Source: an uncultured Aliarcobacter sp. (GTDB taxonomy: Bacteria > Campylobacterota > Campylobacteria > Campylobacterales > Arcobacteraceae). From it: DNA of 64,000 nucleotides. Under the pieces are notes generated by a model. The model made no database searches. It was not told the origin of the DNA and was given only the letters and a program-made list of their open reading frames with translations. This document shows, piece by piece, positions 52,015-64,000 of this stretch (its first letter is position 1; every line of letters starts with the position of its first letter). The stretch spans positions 416,001 to 480,000 of the forward strand of contig CAXXLV010000001.1 in NCBI GenBank assembly GCA_963664305.2, written 5' to 3'. A program made the translations under genes and the position numbers.

Positions 52015-52143
52015 CAAATTTTCCCCCTTGAAATAATAGTTTATTATACTCCTAAACAATTAAGACTTGACATATTAATCATTTTTTTATATCATAAATA
52101 AAATCTTTACTAGAAAATGGCTTTATCAGGGGGAAAATACAAT

Positions 52144-52767
52144 ATGAATATAAAAAATTTATTAATTATGTCTATTTATATTTCCTTATTTATGACAGGA
52201 TGTTCTTATAAAACTAGTGAAGAATCTGTTGATATGTCTACATATTATAAAAATAAAAATTCTATTCACTCAAATGCTTCTTTACAAGAAAGCGATTATC
52301 AAAAATATAAAAACTTTAAACAGCAACAACAATCAAAAAACAATTCAAAAAGTAGTATATTTGATGAATTTACAAATACAAACTATATAACTAAAAAAAC
52401 AGCTCTTAATAATGAACTATTTGATTTTTACAGTAAATGGGAAGGTGTAAGATATAAACTTGGTGGAGAATCTAAAAAAGGTATAGATTGTTCAGCATTT
52501 ATTCAAAAGGCATTTAAAGAAAAATTTGATTTAGAAATGCCAAGAACTACACTTATGCAAGCTAATGTTGGGAAATCAATTAAAAAAGATGAACTTGAGA
52601 TTGGTGATTTAGTTTTTTTCAAAACTGGTAAAACCAAGCATGTTGGTATATATATAGATAACGGTAAATTCATGCATGCATCAACTAAGACAGGTGTAAC
52701 AATCTCTGATTTAGATAATGATTATTTCAATAAAAATTATTGGAAAGCCCAAAGAATAATTGATTGA
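52144..52767 (+). CDS. NlpC/P60 peptidoglycan endopeptidase lipoprotein, copy 1
   Basis: Lipobox MTGC; YKLGG, GIDCSAF, GDLVFF, HVGIY, HAS. Confidence 0.92.
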   Translation: MNIKNLLIMSIYISLFMTGCSYKTSEESVDMSTYYKNKNSIHSNASLQESDYQKYKNFKQQQQSKNNSKSSIFDEFTNTNYITKKTALNNELFDFYSKWEGVRYKLGGESKKGIDCSAFIQKAFKEKFDLEMPRTTLMQANVGKSIKKDELEIGDLVFFKTGKTKHVGIYIDNGKFMHASTKTGVTISDLDNDYFNKNYWKAQRIID

Positions 52768-52789
52768 TTATTAACTATAGGAGAAAATA

Positions 52790-53440
52790 ATGATAAAAAA
52801 GTATTTAACTGTAATACCTGCTGTCTTTATATTTACTGCTTGTAGTAATAACATCCAAAATTTAGAAAATTCTTCTAACCTAAATAACAATCAAACTAAA
52901 ACTACTTTATCTTACGATGATTATGCAAAATTATATGAAACTAAAAATAAAACACAAAAAACAAGTGTTTTAACAAATTATGAAACTATATTCAATCCTA
53001 AAGAATATAAAAGTTCTAATAATAAAAACTATGAATTAGCTAATAATAAAGAAACTATAGTTTCTGAAATCCCAAAGAGAAAACAAGCTTTTAATGACTT
53101 TTATAATGAATGGAAGAATGTTAGATATAAACTTGGTGGAGAATCTAAAAAGGGTATAGATTGCTCTGCATTTACTCAAAGAATCTACAAAGACAAATTT
53201 GGGATAGAATTACCAAGAACAACTCTTACTCAAGTTAATATGGGTGTTGAAGTAAAAAAAGCAGAATTAATTCCTGGTGATTTAGTATTTTTCAAAACAA
53301 GTAAAACTGATAAGCATGTAGGAGTTTATGTAGGAAATGGAAATTTCATGCATGCATCAATTAAAGGTATCCAATTTACAAGTCTTGAAAAACCTTTTTA
53401 TAAAAAGAATTATTGGACTTCTAGAAGAATTATAGATTAA
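52790..53440 (+). CDS. NlpC/P60 peptidoglycan endopeptidase lipoprotein, copy 2
   Basis: Lipobox FTAC; YKLGG, GIDCSAF, PGDLVFF, HVGVY, HAS. Confidence 0.92.
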   Translation: MIKKYLTVIPAVFIFTACSNNIQNLENSSNLNNNQTKTTLSYDDYAKLYETKNKTQKTSVLTNYETIFNPKEYKSSNNKNYELANNKETIVSEIPKRKQAFNDFYNEWKNVRYKLGGESKKGIDCSAFTQRIYKDKFGIELPRTTLTQVNMGVEVKKAELIPGDLVFFKTSKTDKHVGVYVGNGNFMHASIKGIQFTSLEKPFYKKNYWTSRRIID

Positions 53441-56794: not shown

Positions 56795-57346
56795 TTGATT
56801 AGACTTGGTTCAAATTCACCTACTCGTGCATTAATTTTAAAAAATTATGGAATAGATTTCATCCAAAATGGTGGAGATTTTGATGAAGATTCTATAATAA
56901 CTACTAATCCCAAATCATTTTGCTATGAAGCAACTCTTGGAAAATTTCAAGAACTTTATAAAAAATATGGAATAGAAGATATGCCTTTACTTGTTGCTGA
57001 TTCTGTTGTAACTTGCGAAGGAAAATTATTGAGAAAAGCAAAAGATTATGATGATGCAAAATCTATGCTTGAACTTCAAAGTGGTAATAAAACATCAGTG
57101 ATAACTTGTATGATTTATAAATCAAAAGATAAAGAATTAATAGATATTTCAATCACAACTTATAACTTTGATAAATTTGATGAAAAACATATGAAAGAGT
57201 ATTTAGATTCAGGTGAATGTTTTGGTAAAGCAGGTGCAATTATGGTAGAAGGTTTTTGTAAACCATATATAAAAAACGTAGTTGGATATGAAAGTACAGC
57301 TATGGGATTATGTGTTGATAAATTAATTAATTATCTTCCACATTAA
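56795..57346 (+). CDS. maf: Maf family nucleoside triphosphate pyrophosphatase
   Basis: LGSNSPTR, FDE, ADSVV, GKAGA, AMGL. Confidence 0.93.
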   Translation: MIRLGSNSPTRALILKNYGIDFIQNGGDFDEDSIITTNPKSFCYEATLGKFQELYKKYGIEDMPLLVADSVVTCEGKLLRKAKDYDDAKSMLELQSGNKTSVITCMIYKSKDKELIDISITTYNFDKFDEKHMKEYLDSGECFGKAGAIMVEGFCKPYIKNVVGYESTAMGLCVDKLINYLPH

Positions 57347-57518: not shown

Positions 57519-57707
57519 ATGCTGAATTTTTTAAAAAGAAGATTAAAAAACCAAAAAGGTGCAATGGATAAAATCCTTGTTACGTTATTATTAGTTATCG
57601 TAGGTGTTGGTGCCGTTATTGGATTAGCTCAATGGGCAACTGACCAAAAAGACTTAGTGCAAAATTCTGCAAATACTTCTATTAGCAACGTTGTAAACGG
57701 TCAATAA
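57519..57707 (+). CDS. flp: Flp-like major pilin with atypical class III signal peptide
   Basis: 62 aa; basic leader KRRLKNQKG, long hydrophobic helix; first gene of Tad cluster, next to prepilin peptidase. Confidence 0.78.
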   Translation: MLNFLKRRLKNQKGAMDKILVTLLLVIVGVGAVIGLAQWATDQKDLVQNSANTSISNVVNGQ

Positions 57708-57738
57708 ATAAGGAAGTAGCTTTTGCTACTTCTTTATT
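57707..57738 (+). terminator. Hairpin/attenuator after pilin gene
   Basis: AATAAGGAAGTAGC-TTTT-GCTACTTCTTTATT, 14-bp stem with one G-U. Confidence 0.75.
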
Positions 57739-57751
57739 AATTTAGATTATT

Positions 57752-58189
57752 ATGTTTACAATAAGTTTTTATATATTTTCTATTATTCTCTCTTATACTG
57801 ACTATAAAAAATTTTTAGTTCCAAATAATTTATTACTTAGTATGTCAATAATGTTGATAATATTTGGTTTCTTTGAATCAAAAATATATATAAGCTCTAT
57901 TGTTTTATCGTTTTTAGTTTTAATTTTTTTCATAATTTTAATTTTATTAAAACCAACTATGATTCTTGGTGGTGGTGATATTAAATATATGATTATAATC
58001 GCATTTTATTTAGGAATAGAACCATTTGCCCTATTTCTTGTTATAACAGGAATTTTGCAAACTTTAACACTTTTATATATTCAAAATATAAAAAAAAGAA
58101 GAATTGCACCAATGGTTCCTATAATGTTTTTATCCGTAATAATTGTTGAAATTTTAATTTCACTTAATATTTATCCATTTAAGATTTAA
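57752..58189 (+). CDS. tadV: A24 prepilin peptidase (TadV/CpaA type, no methyltransferase domain)
   Basis: YTDY...VPN first Asp and GGGDIK second Asp; 145 aa, hydrophobic. Confidence 0.88.
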   Translation: MFTISFYIFSIILSYTDYKKFLVPNNLLLSMSIMLIIFGFFESKIYISSIVLSFLVLIFFIILILLKPTMILGGGDIKYMIIIAFYLGIEPFALFLVITGILQTLTLLYIQNIKKRRIAPMVPIMFLSVIIVEILISLNIYPFKI

Positions 58190-58198
58190 GGTTCTATC

Positions 58199-59242
58199 AT
58201 GAAAAAAGCACTAATTGATCAAGTAATGTTAGGTCTATTTTTATTTGTAGTATTAATTATTATTGGTGCAACTGTTAGTGATAATATGCAAGCAAGAGAT
58301 AAATACTATAATCTTAAAAAAATAACAGATAATGCCGTTTTAACCCTAGCAAAATATTATGTAAATGTTGAAGAGAATACTCTAAATGCACAAGATGTTT
58401 ATTATCAAATGTTAACAAAAACAAAACTTGGAAATGAAGTAAAAGATACTATTATCTATAATTGGGATTTTATTAGTGAACCAAATACAGTAACAGCTGA
58501 AATACCAAGCTACATTGAAAACACATTTTGGTTTAGATTATTTGGACTTAACGCATTTAATTTAAAAGCTTCTTCAAAAGCTACAATTACTATTACCGAT
58601 TTACCAACTGCAACTTCAAGTTATTCAAGTGGAATAGCACCATTTGCAGTAAATTATAGAGATTTTGTAATTGGTGATAGTTTAGATATCACATATGCTT
58701 TGACTGCTGATTGGCAATATAGTGACAAAGAGACTTTCTACCCAATATTGACCAATTGTGATTGTGACTGTGATTTTATTTTAAGTAATAAATTTGACTT
58801 CTCATCTTTAGGATTTGATGTGGATGCTTGTAATTCTTCTAGTTCAGCATGCACAAGTCATGGAGAGAGTGAATTTACACAATATTCTAATGCTTTAGAT
58901 GATATTTACAATTCTAACCAAAGTATTGATTTTGATAATGGTGTAACTTCATCTCCAATTTGTTTAATTGGAACATATTTAGGTAATACAACATCCACAT
59001 GGGGAACACAAATCAACGGATTATCTAGTGGAATTTATGATATCATTGGTAACACGGGTCAAAATTTACCTTTGGAAATGGATATAATTACTTTAGGTGA
59101 TAATGGAAAAGCAAATGGAATAGTAAGACTGAAGATTACAAGTTATGATTTTGTAACAGTTAGTAATCCAGATAACAGATATTTAACTCTGAATACAACT
59201 ATTGTTCCAGCAAAAACAAGAGAAATACATTTAGTAGATTAG
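58199..59242 (+). CDS. TadG-like minor pilin / tip protein
   Basis: N-terminal TM then 'LKKITDNAVLTLA' (TadG_N-like DxAxL), 'NTFWFRLFG..ASSKATI', 'GIAPFAV'; Tad context. Confidence 0.7.
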   Translation: MKKALIDQVMLGLFLFVVLIIIGATVSDNMQARDKYYNLKKITDNAVLTLAKYYVNVEENTLNAQDVYYQMLTKTKLGNEVKDTIIYNWDFISEPNTVTAEIPSYIENTFWFRLFGLNAFNLKASSKATITITDLPTATSSYSSGIAPFAVNYRDFVIGDSLDITYALTADWQYSDKETFYPILTNCDCDCDFILSNKFDFSSLGFDVDACNSSSSACTSHGESEFTQYSNALDDIYNSNQSIDFDNGVTSSPICLIGTYLGNTTSTWGTQINGLSSGIYDIIGNTGQNLPLEMDIITLGDNGKANGIVRLKITSYDFVTVSNPDNRYLTLNTTIVPAKTREIHLVD

Positions 59243-59250
59243 GATAAATT

Positions 59251-60843
59251 ATGAATATTCAAGAGTATCAAGAAAAAATAGAACATTCTCAAGAAAATAA
59301 ATTCTTTCAAGAAAGTATTCATGAAATGATTGAACTTTTCTGTGATTTGAGTAATCAACCTTATGTTGCATATTATAAATATGAATATGAATATAATGAC
59401 TATTTCCACCAAATTACTGTTAATAGTAATGGTGAAGAATTAAATGATGAAATAAATCATTTTGATAATTATAAATTACTACTAAAAGATAGTAAGAGAG
59501 TTTATGGTTACTTGTTAATAAAAAACAAAATTAAATACTCTTCTTTATTAAGAAAATTGCTTAAAAAAATTATAAAAAAATTAGCAAGAGAACATGAAAT
59601 AAATAAAAAATTATCACAAGGAGAAATTCCTTTTAATATCTATCTAATTCATGATGATTTAGAAACATTTGCAAATAATTTAAAAACTGGTTTGGAAAGT
59701 TTATTTAATGCAAATATTATTTATGATTCATCAATTGAAAAACATTATGAACATATTCAAACTAAAGAATCAAAAAATATCATAATTTTTTTAATAAATG
59801 ACCTAGAGTTTATAGAAAAATTTGCTGATAAACTAAAATATTTAAATGAATTAATCATAGTTATTGGACCAAATGACCATCATATTTCTATGAGTTGTGG
59901 AAAATTAGGTATCGAAGACTATATTTCAATAAATGATTTTAAAGCTGAAAATTTAAAATCAATTATTGTAAATAAAAGAAAAATCTTACTTAATAAAAAT
60001 AAATTTGGTAATAGAATTATTGCTTTAGCTGGAATTGCAGGAGGAATTGGAACAACATCAATTGCAATGAATATGTCTGATTTAATTGCTAAAAATGTTC
60101 CTGATAAAAATATTTTATATATAGATTTATCAACTACAAAAGCAATAAGTAATCTATTTTTATCAGGTGACCCTCTACCAAATAAGACAATAATTGATTT
60201 AATAAATAGTAGTGAATTTAATTTAGACAATAATCTTGAACACGGTCTTGTAAAAGTTAGAGAAAATTTTTATAGTATTACTGGAATTCAAAAACATATT
60301 GATAAAGAGTTTATTGAAAAAGATATTTTTATTCAAAAACTATTAGAGTATATTTCATCTTGCAGTGATTATTTTAACTTTGTAATTATTGATTTAGGAA
60401 TAGCAGATGCATCAAATCTAAAATCTACAATTTATGATATTGTAAATGAATTATGGATTATAACTTCAATGAATTTACCACATACTTCTCAATTAAAAAC
60501 TTTTTATTCATTGATGAAAAGAGCTGGATTAAGGGATAAAATTTCTTTTTTAGCAAATAGATTTGACTCTGAAAATACAATAAGTGTAACAGATGTTATA
60601 TCAATTTTAAATATGAGTAATGATGAAAAAGATCAATTCGAAAGATTTAAAATACCAAATGATTATAAAAGTTTAGGAAGATGTTGGAATCTTTGTGAAC
60701 TAGCATCTCAAAAAGATGTTAATTCTTTATTCATAAAAAAATTAAACTCTATTTTAGAAGAAAAAAATTTTTATAAATCAAAAATTAAAGTAACAACACA
60801 AAGTGGTTTTTTTTCAAATCTTTTTAAGAGGGATAAAAGATGA
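59251..60843 (+). CDS. TadZ/CpaE-like MinD/ParA-family protein with long N-terminal extension
   Basis: IIALAGIAGGIGTTSIAMN degenerate P-loop, LYIDL, FVIIDLG, LANR, IPND; directly upstream of tadA. Confidence 0.8.
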   Translation: MNIQEYQEKIEHSQENKFFQESIHEMIELFCDLSNQPYVAYYKYEYEYNDYFHQITVNSNGEELNDEINHFDNYKLLLKDSKRVYGYLLIKNKIKYSSLLRKLLKKIIKKLAREHEINKKLSQGEIPFNIYLIHDDLETFANNLKTGLESLFNANIIYDSSIEKHYEHIQTKESKNIIIFLINDLEFIEKFADKLKYLNELIIVIGPNDHHISMSCGKLGIEDYISINDFKAENLKSIIVNKRKILLNKNKFGNRIIALAGIAGGIGTTSIAMNMSDLIAKNVPDKNILYIDLSTTKAISNLFLSGDPLPNKTIIDLINSSEFNLDNNLEHGLVKVRENFYSITGIQKHIDKEFIEKDIFIQKLLEYISSCSDYFNFVIIDLGIADASNLKSTIYDIVNELWIITSMNLPHTSQLKTFYSLMKRAGLRDKISFLANRFDSENTISVTDVISILNMSNDEKDQFERFKIPNDYKSLGRCWNLCELASQKDVNSLFIKKLNSILEEKNFYKSKIKVTTQSGFFSNLFKRDKR

Positions 60844-62441
60844 GAAGTTTAAGAAATCTTATTGAAGAACAAGAAGAGCAAGAATATACTAAAAAGAAGG
60901 ATTTAGTAGAATTTGAAGAATTAGATAATATTGAAGAAACAAAAAATAAAATTGAAAAATATAAACAATATCAATCAAATTCTGAATTAAAATTTCCCGA
61001 AATTTATATAAATAAAGAACTATACGATTTAGCATTAAAGATAAATGATAGTTTTTTATTAAAACTTAAATCAGACCAAAAAATTACAAAAGAAAATTTA
61101 GAAGAAGTATTACCAGAATATATTTTATCTTTTAAAGAATCAAGAGCTTTAAAAAGAGAAATATTAGATGATATTAAAACTATGATTATAAACAACATTA
61201 TTGGTTTTGGTCATATTTCAACTATTTTTACAATTGCAAGAGATGGCTTAAATGATGTTATTGTAAATACAAAAGACTATATTGATATTATTTATAAAGG
61301 TAAAACTTATCAAACTCCATTTACATTTAGAAGTGAAGAAGAGTTAAGAAAAATTATCGATAAAATGCTTGCTGAAAATAATAGAAAAATCGATGAAGCT
61401 CATCCAATTATGTCAAGTAAATTAAAAGATGGTTCAAGAATTGAAGTTCAAATTCCTCCAATTGCAGCAAATGAAGGAAGTTGTATTACTATTAGAAAAT
61501 TTAACGATATTCCTTTACTAATGGAAATGCTTATTGATGGTGGGCAAATGGATTATAAAATGGCCTATTTCCTAGTAAAAGCTGCAAAAGGAAAATGTAA
61601 TATCATTGTTTCAGGAGGAACATCAAGTGGTAAGACAACTTTCTTAAATGCAATGACAAGATTCGTTGACGAAAATGAACAACTTATGGTTATTGAAGAT
61701 ACAAGAGAGATGCAACCACAAATGCCTTGTCACTCTATTAGACAATATGAAGCAAGAATGGCAAATGAAGAAGGAAAAGGTGCAATTACACTTGATTTCT
61801 TGTTACGTTCGGCTCTACGGTCAAGTCCAAGAAGGATTATTGTTGGGGAGTGTAGAGGACCTGAAATTGTTGTTATGTTAAATGCGATGAATACTGGACA
61901 TCCTGGTTCAATGACAACTGTTCATGCTGATAATACAAAAGAAGCTCTAGTTAGGATTGAGAATATGTATCTTGAAGCCAGACCTAGTGCAAATATCAAT
62001 TTTATTAGAACTCAAATTGCAAGTGCTGTTGATTTAATTATTCAGCTTGTTAGGTTTCCTGATGGTAGTAGAAAACTAATCACTGTTTCAGAGATTGAAA
62101 GAAGAATTGAAGATAACGGTGTAATCTCACTAAATCATATCTTTGAATTTAAAAGAGATACAAGTGATTTGAAAAAAACAAAAGGTGAATTTAAAGTTTT
62201 ATCTACTCCAACAAGAACAGCCGACCAAATGAATATGTTTGGAGTTGATATAGATAAAAGAGTATTTGATCCAAATTTTGAAATGCCAAAATCAATGTTA
62301 ATTGAAGCACTTGAAGATGATTTACCTTCTGTTATGTGTGGATGGAAAGATGAATTTATTGAACACTTTATCAAATCAGACCCTCAGCTTTTCCATAAAT
62401 GGCCACATTTCCAAAAAATAAGAAAGGCAAATAATGGATAA
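60840..62441 (+). CDS. tadA: Tad/CpaF assembly ATPase
   Basis: LKDGSRI, TIRKF, GGTSSGKTT, IEDTRE, RIIVGECRG, AMNTGHPGSMTTVHA. Confidence 0.95.
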   Translation: MRSLRNLIEEQEEQEYTKKKDLVEFEELDNIEETKNKIEKYKQYQSNSELKFPEIYINKELYDLALKINDSFLLKLKSDQKITKENLEEVLPEYILSFKESRALKREILDDIKTMIINNIIGFGHISTIFTIARDGLNDVIVNTKDYIDIIYKGKTYQTPFTFRSEEELRKIIDKMLAENNRKIDEAHPIMSSKLKDGSRIEVQIPPIAANEGSCITIRKFNDIPLLMEMLIDGGQMDYKMAYFLVKAAKGKCNIIVSGGTSSGKTTFLNAMTRFVDENEQLMVIEDTREMQPQMPCHSIRQYEARMANEEGKGAITLDFLLRSALRSSPRRIIVGECRGPEIVVMLNAMNTGHPGSMTTVHADNTKEALVRIENMYLEARPSANINFIRTQIASAVDLIIQLVRFPDGSRKLITVSEIERRIEDNGVISLNHIFEFKRDTSDLKKTKGEFKVLSTPTRTADQMNMFGVDIDKRVFDPNFEMPKSMLIEALEDDLPSVMCGWKDEFIEHFIKSDPQLFHKWPHFQKIRKANNG

Positions 62442-63360
62442 TTTATTTTTATTTTTTATTTTTACTATTCCTGTACTATTTGGAGTATTTGCTTTAACAA
62501 CATACTCTTTTTATTCAAAAGTAAGAAATAAAAAATATTTAATAAATTTATTATCAAGTACAAATAGTAAAATTATTGATAAAAATAAAATCGATAATTT
62601 CTCAACAAAAGATGACAATTGGCTTATCAAAAAACTAAGATTTGCAGGTTTTAATTCAAAGGGTGCAGAAGTAATTTTTATTTTAATAAGCCTTGGATTT
62701 GGATTTTTATCTGCTGCATTTGTATATTTTGTTGCAAATTCTAAAATCATATTTATCTTTTGTTTTTTAATCTTTTCTTTTTTCCCTTATTTAGTTTTAG
62801 TAAAAATCATAAAATCAAGAGAAGAAGAGTTCAATTTTAATTTAAAAGAATTAATTGACAAAGTTACAAGTATGATGAAAAGTGGTGTTGGTTTTGAACA
62901 AGCTTTAAAAAAATCAATTCTAACTTGTAAATCAAAACTTACAAAAGATATTTTTTCAATTTATATTAATGAAAAATCAATTATTGGTGAAGATAAATGT
63001 TTTGAAAAAATGTTTGATATTATTGAATCAAAAGAGTTAAGGATTTTTTATCTAACTATTTCAATAGGAAGAAAATCTGGAGGTAAATTTTCTAATACAT
63101 TAGAAAAATTAAGAAAAACATTACATGACCAAGGTGAAATTAAACAAGAAATCACTTCATCAACAAAAGAGATAAAAATTGGAACTTACTTTATTATAGG
63201 TATTACAGTTTTTATTTATATTATGTTGAATCAAGCACTAAATAATGTACTTAATCAACATTTTTTTGGTAGTGATACAGGGAAACTTCAAATGTTTTTT
63301 ATTGTTGTTTGGGTTTCATTTGGTATATTTGTAAATAGCTTATTAACAAAGATTAAATAA
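62434..63360 (+). CDS. tadB: TadB inner-membrane platform protein (T2SS F family)
   Basis: N-terminal TMs, MKSGVGFEQAL, SGGKFSNTLEKL; follows tadA. Confidence 0.85.
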   Translation: MDNLFLFFIFTIPVLFGVFALTTYSFYSKVRNKKYLINLLSSTNSKIIDKNKIDNFSTKDDNWLIKKLRFAGFNSKGAEVIFILISLGFGFLSAAFVYFVANSKIIFIFCFLIFSFFPYLVLVKIIKSREEEFNFNLKELIDKVTSMMKSGVGFEQALKKSILTCKSKLTKDIFSIYINEKSIIGEDKCFEKMFDIIESKELRIFYLTISIGRKSGGKFSNTLEKLRKTLHDQGEIKQEITSSTKEIKIGTYFIIGITVFIYIMLNQALNNVLNQHFFGSDTGKLQMFFIVVWVSFGIFVNSLLTKIK

Positions 63361-64000
63361 TGGAAAAATCACTTTTACTACTAATATTAGCACCTGTTGT
63401 ATTAGCCTTTATTTTCCTAATTACACTTGTTTTCCTTGAAAAAAGAAAACAACAAAAAAGTATTATTCTTCTTTCAAAAATGGATAATAAAGCAATTATT
63501 GACCAACAAAGAACAAAGAAAAAAGACAGCACTGGTCTTACTATGAAATTAATTCAATCTGGAATTACTTATAAAGAGTATACGGAAGCTAGATTAGTTT
63601 TTGCAATAATTGGTTTAATACTTATGTGTACATTACCTTTCTTTTTTTCAATCACAGTTGGAATAATAAGTGTGGCTGTTGGGATTTTATGTATTGTTTT
63701 TGGTGGAGATATGTATTTAAGTATCTCGAAATCTGAAAGAATTGAAAAAATCAACAATGACTTAGGTGTTTTTTTGGATTTAGTAAATGTTATTTTAGAA
63801 GCTGGAGGAAGTTTAAAAAATGCATTTTTTGAAGTTTCAAAAAGAGGTGTTGGGATAATTGACCAAGAATTATTAAAAGAAATTGCAATTTTAGAATATG
63901 AAATGACAAATTACTCTTCAAAAGTTGCATATGAAAATCTAAAAAATAGAATTGATAGTAGAGAAGTTGATAAGATAGTTGATTTCTTGATTTTAAGTGA
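63360..64000 (+). CDS. tadC: TadC inner-membrane platform protein, runs off window end
   Basis: ATG 63360 overlaps tadB stop; open frame MEKSLLL...DLGVFLDLVNVILEAGGSLKNAF...; no stop in window. Confidence 0.85.
   Translation, partial: MEKSLLLLILAPVVLAFIFLITLVFLEKRKQQKSIILLSKMDNKAIIDQQRTKKKDSTGLTMKLIQSGITYKEYTEARLVFAIIGLILMCTLPFFFSITVGIISVAVGILCIVFGGDMYLSISKSERIEKINNDLGVFLDLVNVILEAGGSLKNAFFEVSKRGVGIIDQELLKEIAILEYEMTNYSSKVAYENLKNRIDSREVDKIVDFLILS

Follow-up and report, generated by a model that had tools for sequence, protein, structure and literature searches.

Can a Tad (type IVc) pilus be built from pilins that carry neither Glu at position +5 nor Tyr at position +6 of the mature chain? The question is raised by a locus at the end of a 64,000-nucleotide stretch of DNA from an uncultured Aliarcobacter sp. 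(hereafter the window, which lies on contig C1 of a genome that is 99.96% complete; coordinates past 64000 continue the window numbering). An initial annotation had described here a coupled run of genes for a pilin, an A24 peptidase and TadG-like, TadZ, TadA, TadB and TadC proteins directly after maf, and all seven open reading frames (ORFs) lie where it placed them; they are on the + strand, contain no internal stops and either adjoin or overlap. Reading the ORFs together with Pfam and NCBIfam matches, we found that the run extends 3.3 kb beyond the window edge and forms a complete ten-gene Tad operon of ~ 9.8 kb, flp-tadV-tadG-tadZ-tadA-tadB-tadC-rcpC-tadE-rcpA. All ten frames are open, so that the frameshifts considered possible in the downstream genes are absent. 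The ten intact genes belong to Tad families, keep their order among relatives and are under purifying selection, and Glu+5 and Tyr+6 are missing from the pilins. This pilin motif is the most unusual feature of the locus and had been overlooked; the presence of the operon and its gene order are modest news, and the missing motif is what sets this Tad apart. In our view it is quite likely that the operon is complete and functional and represents a long-isolated lineage, in which Glu5 and Tyr6 were secondarily lost, the fibre is packed by hydrophobic contacts, and the pilus likely serves in attachment or biofilm formation.

Bacterial type IV pilins are described by the pattern [GAS]-x4-[DE], whereas the Flp pilins are recognised by having Glu+5 followed by Tyr+6 (PMC3244431). 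According to a structure paper of 2023, conservation is absolute for Glu5 among the type IV pili of bacteria and for Tyr6 among all Tad pili (PMC10710030). The first gene of the operon (57519..57707, +) encodes a Flp-sized protein of 62 aa with a basic leader, in which Gly14, invariant among relatives, is the sole such small residue ahead of the hydrophobic stretch. The predicted mature start is A-M-D-K-I-L, from Ala15, which would leave a pilin of 48 aa, without a globular domain and within the 40-60 residue range of Tad pilins. The 64 pilins read in loci and 120 of the 827 database matches, those listed, together gave 175 distinct sequences, and the site was located in 171 of them. Position +5 is Ile, Val or Leu at all 171 sites, and Tyr+6 is absent without exception. 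Because the site-locating pattern itself required hydrophobic residues at these positions, the published bacterial motif was taken as an independent test. It was found at the cleavage site in 0/171 major pilins, 0/51 TadE and 0/47 TadG proteins (the site being located in 51/53 and 47/53 of the latter two). One of the 171 major pilins has the motif near the site, upstream within an extended N-terminus, and the four sequences with no located site lack Glu5 by inspection. Acidic residues are missing altogether from eight pilins of family f7 and of records labelled Sulfurospirillum or Campylobacterales (G/MSGVL, G/INGVI; the slash marks the cleavage site). Since tip pilins without Glu5 are already known (PMC10191384), the major pilin is the informative case.

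The pilins also fail the Flp family test (PF04964, with Glu/Asp+5 and Tyr+6), which canonical controls pass; the best PF04964 match among 20 members was at 0.043. No Flp_Fap match was obtained for the pilin or anywhere in the 99.96% complete genome, in a search that passed its cut-off in 1/14 control genomes, and no canonical Flp was found elsewhere by the genome scan. Comparison of the pilin with plasmid sequences gave no match at E 10. The profile of the pilin family scored two bacterial Flp highest (19.5 bits for Arthrobacter, and 11.5), against 4.9 bits for a haloarchaeal pilin, although five other bacterial pilins reached just 1.5-6.4 bits. As they fail both the PilFind rule and the Flp_Fap model, pilins of this kind will be missed in surveys.

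Size and position, a conserved core with a free outer half, and a hairpin behind the gene suggest, together with the missing Flp_Fap match, that this gene encodes the major pilin. Nonsynonymous divergence (pN) is 0.02-0.11 in the N-terminal half and ~ 0.5, near the synonymous value (pS), in the C-terminal half. The hairpin is terminator-like, has a stem of 14 bp and directly follows the gene (57707..57738, +; scored as z against shuffles). Hairpins with z<-2 stand behind the pilin gene in 32/36 loci, versus 0-1 of 31-36 for four other genes (mononucleotide shuffles). Tandem pilin copies occur in 4/21 loci. A promoter scan gave no excess over shuffles (69 vs 75.8), and a four-copy complex prediction of the pilin, scored 0.01, is evidence for neither side. 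Among other pilins, that of a Clostridioides plasmid (L142:10184-10435), Tad-like and with no Pfam match, has Gln at +5; with this further bacterial Glu5 exception, it would be unwarranted to call ours the first Tad pilins without Glu5. Away from the operon, loci L168 and L170 have a gene of 194 aa, receiver-like by eye, between two additional pilin genes of the Tad type in divergent orientation; one of these two genomes has no TadA match.

An acid does occur close to the expected position, with Asp at +3 in 163/171 major pilins and Asp or Glu at +3 in 39/47 TadG proteins. It could be Glu5 itself, displaced by a mature N-terminus two residues shorter in an otherwise ordinary Tad fibre. Alignments with hidden Markov models place a 3-residue gap here, and an ungapped offset of +2/+3 fits best against the Flp of Photobacterium, Arthrobacter and Streptomyces (3/9 rows); however, the remaining 6/9 rows, closely related, prefer -1, and TadE prefers -2 in 13/18 rows, which is the opposite direction. 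Furthermore, eight of the 171 major pilins have no acid at +3, and the Tyr is missing in every register. A mere shift of register is thus an improbable account of the motif.

The remaining operon genes provide the components of a Tad machine. TadV (57752..58189, +; 145 aa) is an A24 prepilin peptidase (PF01478, 2.5e-12) with both catalytic Asp and no methylase domain; the first catalytic Asp is present in 19/19 full-length rows and the G-x-D motif in 53/53. The assembly ATPase TadA/CpaF (60840..62441, +; 533 aa; Pfam T2SSE, 4.4e-45) has intact Walker A and B motifs and a conserved C-terminal extension. Two neighbouring platform genes with one T2SSF domain each, as in Tad systems, encode TadB (62434..63360, +; PF00482, 3.6e-8) and TadC (63360..64199, +, cut by the window edge at 64000; PF00482, 3.5e-7). 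They are followed by genes for an RcpC/CpaB-like protein of 399 aa (64218-65417), a TadE-like minor pilin of 141 aa without Glu+5 (65410-65835) and a secretin of 495 aa (65845-67332; PF00263, 6e-41), and a convergent gene lies downstream of the secretin, after the operon end. As had been remarked, there is no rcpC or secretin gene between tadV and tadZ, where the TadG-like gene takes their slot; the accompanying guess that both may lie downstream turned out to be right. Their absence is ruled out, and because both are encoded just past the window edge, they have been moved and are not missing.

Pfam and NCBIfam matches are clear for the peptidase, the ATPase, the secretin and the two platform proteins but weak for RcpC and TadZ. 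The matches of RcpC itself are SAF 0.066, SH3_3 0.0064 and TIGR03177 0.0011, with no PDB sequence match, and its homologues reach 3e-11 for SAF and 1e-7 for SH3_3, indicating a SAF domain with an added SH3b-like domain. The secretin matches the RcpA-type N-domain (PF13629) at 7.5e-4, below the cut-off. RcpC with SAF and a secretin, the combination expected of diderm Tad systems, are thus both within the locus. No tadD, rcpB or second TadE/F gene was found within it, and TadD was not found in the genome with a single TadD query, run without a positive control. TadD, the pilotin, is an accessory component in the Tad model of 10.1101/576694.

Two minor pilin genes represent the TadE/F/G class. 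TadG (58199..59242, +; 347 aa) has a pilin-like conserved N-terminal part of ~ 130 aa, homologous to the TadE-like protein (hhalign 96.6%) and predicted to form a long helix and a sheet as in a pilin, and a variable C-terminal domain that is swapped among relatives. Relatives measure 314-846 aa, and Ig/cadherin-like domains were recognised in 5/5 tested forms near 800 aa, which makes TadG, by analogy, a probable tip adhesin. TadG of this genome has no Pfam match or named domain of its own, so that its label has weaker support; a fold search with the whole protein, not the C-terminal domain alone, gave best Z 8.2 to unrelated phosphatases and 4.4-6.5 to pilins. In the f7 loci L067-L070 the tadG slot is occupied by a short pilin-like ORF and then a separate exported protein of 550-590 aa, as if tip pilin and adhesin domain had been split. 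TadE homologues weakly match PF13400 (9/22) and PF07811 (4/22).

TadZ/CpaE (59251..60843, +; 530 aa) is identified by its predicted model (mean predicted local distance difference test score 79) and fold matches. The model comprises an extra N-terminal part (1-122), a receiver-like domain (126-250) and a ParA/MinD ATPase (250-506), with matches of Z 29.6 to ParA/MinD proteins and Z 14-15 to receivers, including CpaE. The best two-domain match is PDB 3fkq, which we take to be a TadZ, the entry title not saying so. Walker A has no Lys, as expected of TadZ, and the motif is kept in 62/62 cases. Residues 1-122 are barely covered by the fold search, and most of this extension is missing from other homologues (397-458 aa). 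A GAF match was obtained in 1/5 homologues scanned (Sulfurospirillum-labelled) and not in a second long homologue, and the atlas lead to GAF scored <0.9; a degenerate GAF domain is therefore offered as a lead.

The operon is not a pseudogene or an assembly artefact, as judged by the open frames, by pN<pS and by a public sequencing-run contig that covers the full 10.2 kb with 0 differences (the contig possibly derives from the same DNA source). Compared with five relatives, pN<pS holds in all ten genes; it is weakest for tadG in two pairs with a swapped domain. GC content is 25-26% in 2-kb bins across the locus vs 27.3% for the contig. Gene order was compared in 21 loci, comprising this genome and 20 of 59 positive relatives chosen for long contigs, and is exact in 19/21; one locus is without tadG and one has tadG moved and inverted. 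In one congener an ORF of 460 aa is located between tadB and tadC (L033:11674-13056).

By similarity, the ATPase is TadA. Its PDB scores are 231 bits to CpaF, 112 to FlaI, and 89 and 80 to VirB11, and the top NCBIfam score, 224 bits, is to TIGR03819, under its cut-off. Four TadA proteins of the clade scored 224-258 bits against six TadA references, 102-128 against four VirB11/TrbB, 119-129 against two haloarchaeal PilB and 0-58 against the two other T2SSE-family ATPases of the genome. Trees were built with FastTree (184 rows) and as posterior mean site frequency (PMSF) trees of 48 and 35 rows, hand-picked from those 184 plus named references. Members of the TadA clade form a single, fully supported group on a stem of 1.6-2.0 changes per site; this group lies near the root in FastTree and is nested among bacterial CpaF in both quick PMSF trees (unstarred support 80-91). 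Approximately unbiased (AU) tests gave p 0.816 for union with VirB11/TrbB, 0.735 with haloarchaeal PilB (two sequences standing in for methanogen Epd) and 0.375 with the canonical Campylobacterota clade. The concern that the ATPase might cluster with VirB11 finds no support in similarity or context, with lower scores and no VirB/Trb gene among the ten of the operon, although the tree tests did not exclude it.

The long stem could also mean that the operon belongs to a deep or separately acquired Tad/Epd branch that never had the Flp motif, its archaeal-like pilin start being the original state. Of the 150 best matches among 1.84 billion cluster representatives, no more than two exceed 44% identity to our TadA (62% and 81%), the acid-free pilins of f7 and of the Sulfurospirillum- and Campylobacterales-labelled records resemble a haloarchaeal pilin, union with haloarchaeal PilB was not rejected, and there is a weak atlas lead (0.86, 38% of members) to the class III signal family of archaea. 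Bacterial TadA, however, give roughly double the pairwise scores, RcpC and a secretin carrying an RcpA-type N-domain are additions of bacterial Tad, and the pilin profile prefers two Flp, in a comparison that lacked methanogen Epd. We therefore regard an ancestral absence of the motif as unlikely. The same low weight is given to its fuller form, a branch that is deep or was taken from archaea independently of every studied bacterial Tad pilus, with a core free of Glu5 and Tyr6, uncharged in some members, a secretin without pilotin, and gating by a GAF-receiver TadZ. The similarity scores, the presence of RcpC and the pilin profile speak for a bacterial Tad that evolved fast and lost the motif secondarily, and a bacterial pilus that works although it lacks the Flp motif is likely irrespective of origin.

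The operon is accessory, being present in part of the genus and of the family. TadA matches were found in 60/184 family genomes (49/152 of the good ones), in 13/22 genera and in 7/43 other members of the genus, and pilin profile matches in 63/184 family genomes; database matches carry the labels Aliarcobacter, Halarcobacter, Poseidonibacter and Arcobacter. Among 401 sampled genomes of the phylum, the 17 TadA matches comprised this genome, 3/23 of the family, 5/34 of f7 and 8 in f2/f3, with TadA identities of 57-59% for f7 and 40-43% for f2/f3. Loci of f7 and the Sulfurospirillum- and Campylobacterales-labelled records have the same core order with the pilin relocated to the far end. The pilin profile had 0 matches in 276 genomes of f2 and f3, TadA in plasmids was in all cases <60% identical, and as far as searched the lineage is confined to Campylobacterota. 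Since related genomes are not independent, these counts describe spread only.

Genes flanking the 21 loci are variable or housekeeping, and no conserved cargo gene was seen beside the operon. The maf gene (56795-57346 here, Pfam Maf) is directly upstream in 4/21 loci and occurs in 10/10 genomes checked, with or without the operon beside it, so that a functional link is ruled out and the neighbourhood with maf is a matter of position only. In 5/5 complete genomes of congeners that lack TadA, maf borders directly on the genes that come after the operon here. Nine regions around extra pilin matches revealed one TadA-less genome with maf-pilin-tadV-dxs, another with maf-pilin, and two genomes with the operon elsewhere that keep a lone pilin directly after maf. 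These relics of pilin and tadV suggest long residence followed by loss; the operon may originally have stood between maf and dxs, from where it was later lost or moved. Two tandem lipoprotein genes 4 kb upstream (window 52117-53440), presumably of the NlpC/P60 type by their motifs, are kept near maf in relatives, and no link to the pilus was seen.

Across 13 loci, ten of this lineage and three canonical, third-position GC tracks that of the host from 0.12 to 0.42 and departs from the flanks by <=0.09. In this genome most operon genes are within the ordinary range, tadV is low, and the short pilin is an outlier. The operon has thus probably long been resident in the host lineage. The initial annotation had come to the same view of a Tad identity, an accessory character, a host-like AT content and long residence, which the genome counts, GC tracking and relics now support. 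Transfer within the family is suggested by the TadA of three members of one genus, which are 85-86% identical to ours, as compared with 74-78% in 16 congeners.

By analogy with characterised systems (PMC10191384, PMC12307814, PMC11870444), TadV would cut the leaders of the three pilins after Gly or Ala. TadA, on the TadB/TadC platform, would polymerise the 48-residue pilin and probably retract it, and the fibre would run in the RcpC conduit to the secretin. The two minor pilins, TadE and TadG, are expected to start the fibre and sit at its tip, with the exchangeable TadG domain binding surfaces, while TadZ would place the machine, possibly under control of the extra sensory domain. The hairpin may raise pilin message above that of the assembly genes. 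Hydrophobic packing of the helices would suffice to hold the fibre together, as it does in archaeal pili, with Glu5 and Tyr6 lost on the lineage stem. The Tad filament of Caulobacter is packed in an archaeal-like way, with Glu5 exposed at the surface (PMC10710030, PMC11870444), which makes loss of Glu5 plausible. The most likely role, by analogy, is attachment and biofilm formation in environmental Arcobacteraceae.

Some Tad systems are used in contact killing, and the top PDB match of our secretin is GspD. A short pseudopilus or a secretion or contact device (export of a TadG adhesin in the manner of type II secretion, contact or killing, DNA uptake) in place of a long adhesive pilus is nevertheless very unlikely: subunits without Glu5 usually cap rather than build fibres (PMC10191384), but the hairpin pattern, the hypervariable exposed half of the pilin and its tandem copies fit an abundant surface filament, no conserved cargo gene was seen next to the operon, and nothing was found in support of DNA uptake, which had been among the functions first proposed.

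Several points weigh against a functional adhesive Tad pilus with secondary loss of the motif. Glu5 mutants of other bacterial pili fail to homopolymerise (PMC4471445) and the register of Tad subunits is reportedly fixed by Tyr6 (PMC10710030), so some compensation would be needed. TadD, described as essential for secretin assembly in Pseudomonas and Aggregatibacter (PMC6668835, PMC12307814), is absent from the locus, and the subfamily of the secretin is ambiguous, with PDB scores of 80.5 bits to GspD and 70.8 to RcpA. One locus of the 21, L036, in a genome 81% complete, has split tadB and rcpC genes. The AU test rejected none of the three placements and two constrained trees fitted better than the quick free tree; secondary loss is therefore not proven. 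Adhesion is read from analogy and from Ig/cadherin domains in the TadG of relatives, our own TadG having none with a name, and pilus formation, cleavage site and function are predicted here from the genes.

The lineage makes directly testable why Glu5 is kept although it faces outward in the Tad filament, as the whole machine is under selection while both residues are gone in three pilin classes, and the canonical Tad of phylum-mates can serve as control. The failure of Glu5 mutants in other pili adds to the value of such a test. For Arcobacteraceae, the operon represents a candidate attachment organelle whose tip domain is exchangeable and which roughly one in three species genomes encodes.

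Tad in Campylobacterota is not new as such, and its absence from the model species, stressed at first, does not extend to the phylum. A TAD cluster was reported in a Sulfurospirillum epibiont genome (PMC10470745), and an automated scan in the supplement of that 2023 paper lists Tad in 2/29 Arcobacter, 1/13 Sulfurospirillum and 3/12 Sulfurimonas genomes (columns machine-read from PDF). These clusters come from the same host groups and include rcpA, tadZ, tadV, tadC, tadB and tadA; they are table entries without pilin, order, phylogeny or motif, and the match to our loci is judged by hosts and components. That pilins are unlisted there fits their escape from Flp models. An identical characterised locus was the remaining concern about novelty: apart from these automated calls, our literature search, which left subscription papers mostly outside, found no account of the operon layout or its pilins. 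The supplement of PMC6668835, of which six files were searched without a match, may list the locus. The rearranged order, emphasised initially, does differ from the Aggregatibacter/Vibrio type, but is weak news alone, since Tad loci show local order permutations (10.1101/576694) and in a Rhizobium locus TadG/TadE also stand ahead of a TadZ-like gene.

Other filament genes of this genome lie beyond the window. What looks like another type IV filament system (G000:C1:864500-878450) is a run of genes on one strand that includes those for a lipoprotein of 553 aa, a platform-like protein and an ATPase of the T2SSE family; several related exported proteins flank it, and a scan found no Glu5-type pilin inside. 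A GspE/PilB-like ATPase has a platform-like neighbour at G000:C2:49000-53200. The other convincing class III pilins are three scattered PilD-type proteins (S/FSLxE), and a second A24 peptidase and a second secretin are likewise scattered elsewhere.

In general composition, our operon is like the Tad/Flp systems of Aggregatibacter, Pseudomonas, Vibrionaceae and Caulobacter (Cpa), which combine in one operon a short pilin, a methylase-less A24 peptidase, TadZ, a CpaF-like ATPase, a split TadB/TadC platform, RcpC, a secretin and TadE/G-type minor pilins. Unlike them, it has no Flp motif in any pilin, the order tadG-tadZABC-rcpC-tadE-rcpA, a locus that lacks tadD, rcpB and a further TadE/F gene, an extra N-terminal domain in TadZ, SH3b in RcpC and a TadA only ~ 40% identical. 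Packing and ancestry of Tad pili are described as archaeal-like (PMC10710030, PMC6668835), and the archaeal type IV pili (Epd-like, haloarchaeal PilB/C) often have pilins without Glu5 as well; in contrast to these, a secretin and RcpC are present here, the pilin has no globular domain and the ATPase reaches against archaeal homologues about half the score that it has with bacterial ones. A further contrast lies within the phylum, where canonical Tad, a machine of the same class, occurs in f2/f3 (8/401 sampled Campylobacterota genomes, of 1.8-2.0 Mb, six of them read as L072-L077). Its TadA groups with that of Photobacterium (95-98 in the Shimodaira-Hasegawa-like approximate likelihood-ratio test), and it is probably a separate gain from Gammaproteobacteria, although the AU test (p 0.375) did not reject union with our clade. 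There the order is flp-tadV-rcpC-rcpA-tadZABCDEFG with a tetratricopeptide-repeat TadD, and the pilin keeps G/VTAIEY and passes the PF04964 cut-off.

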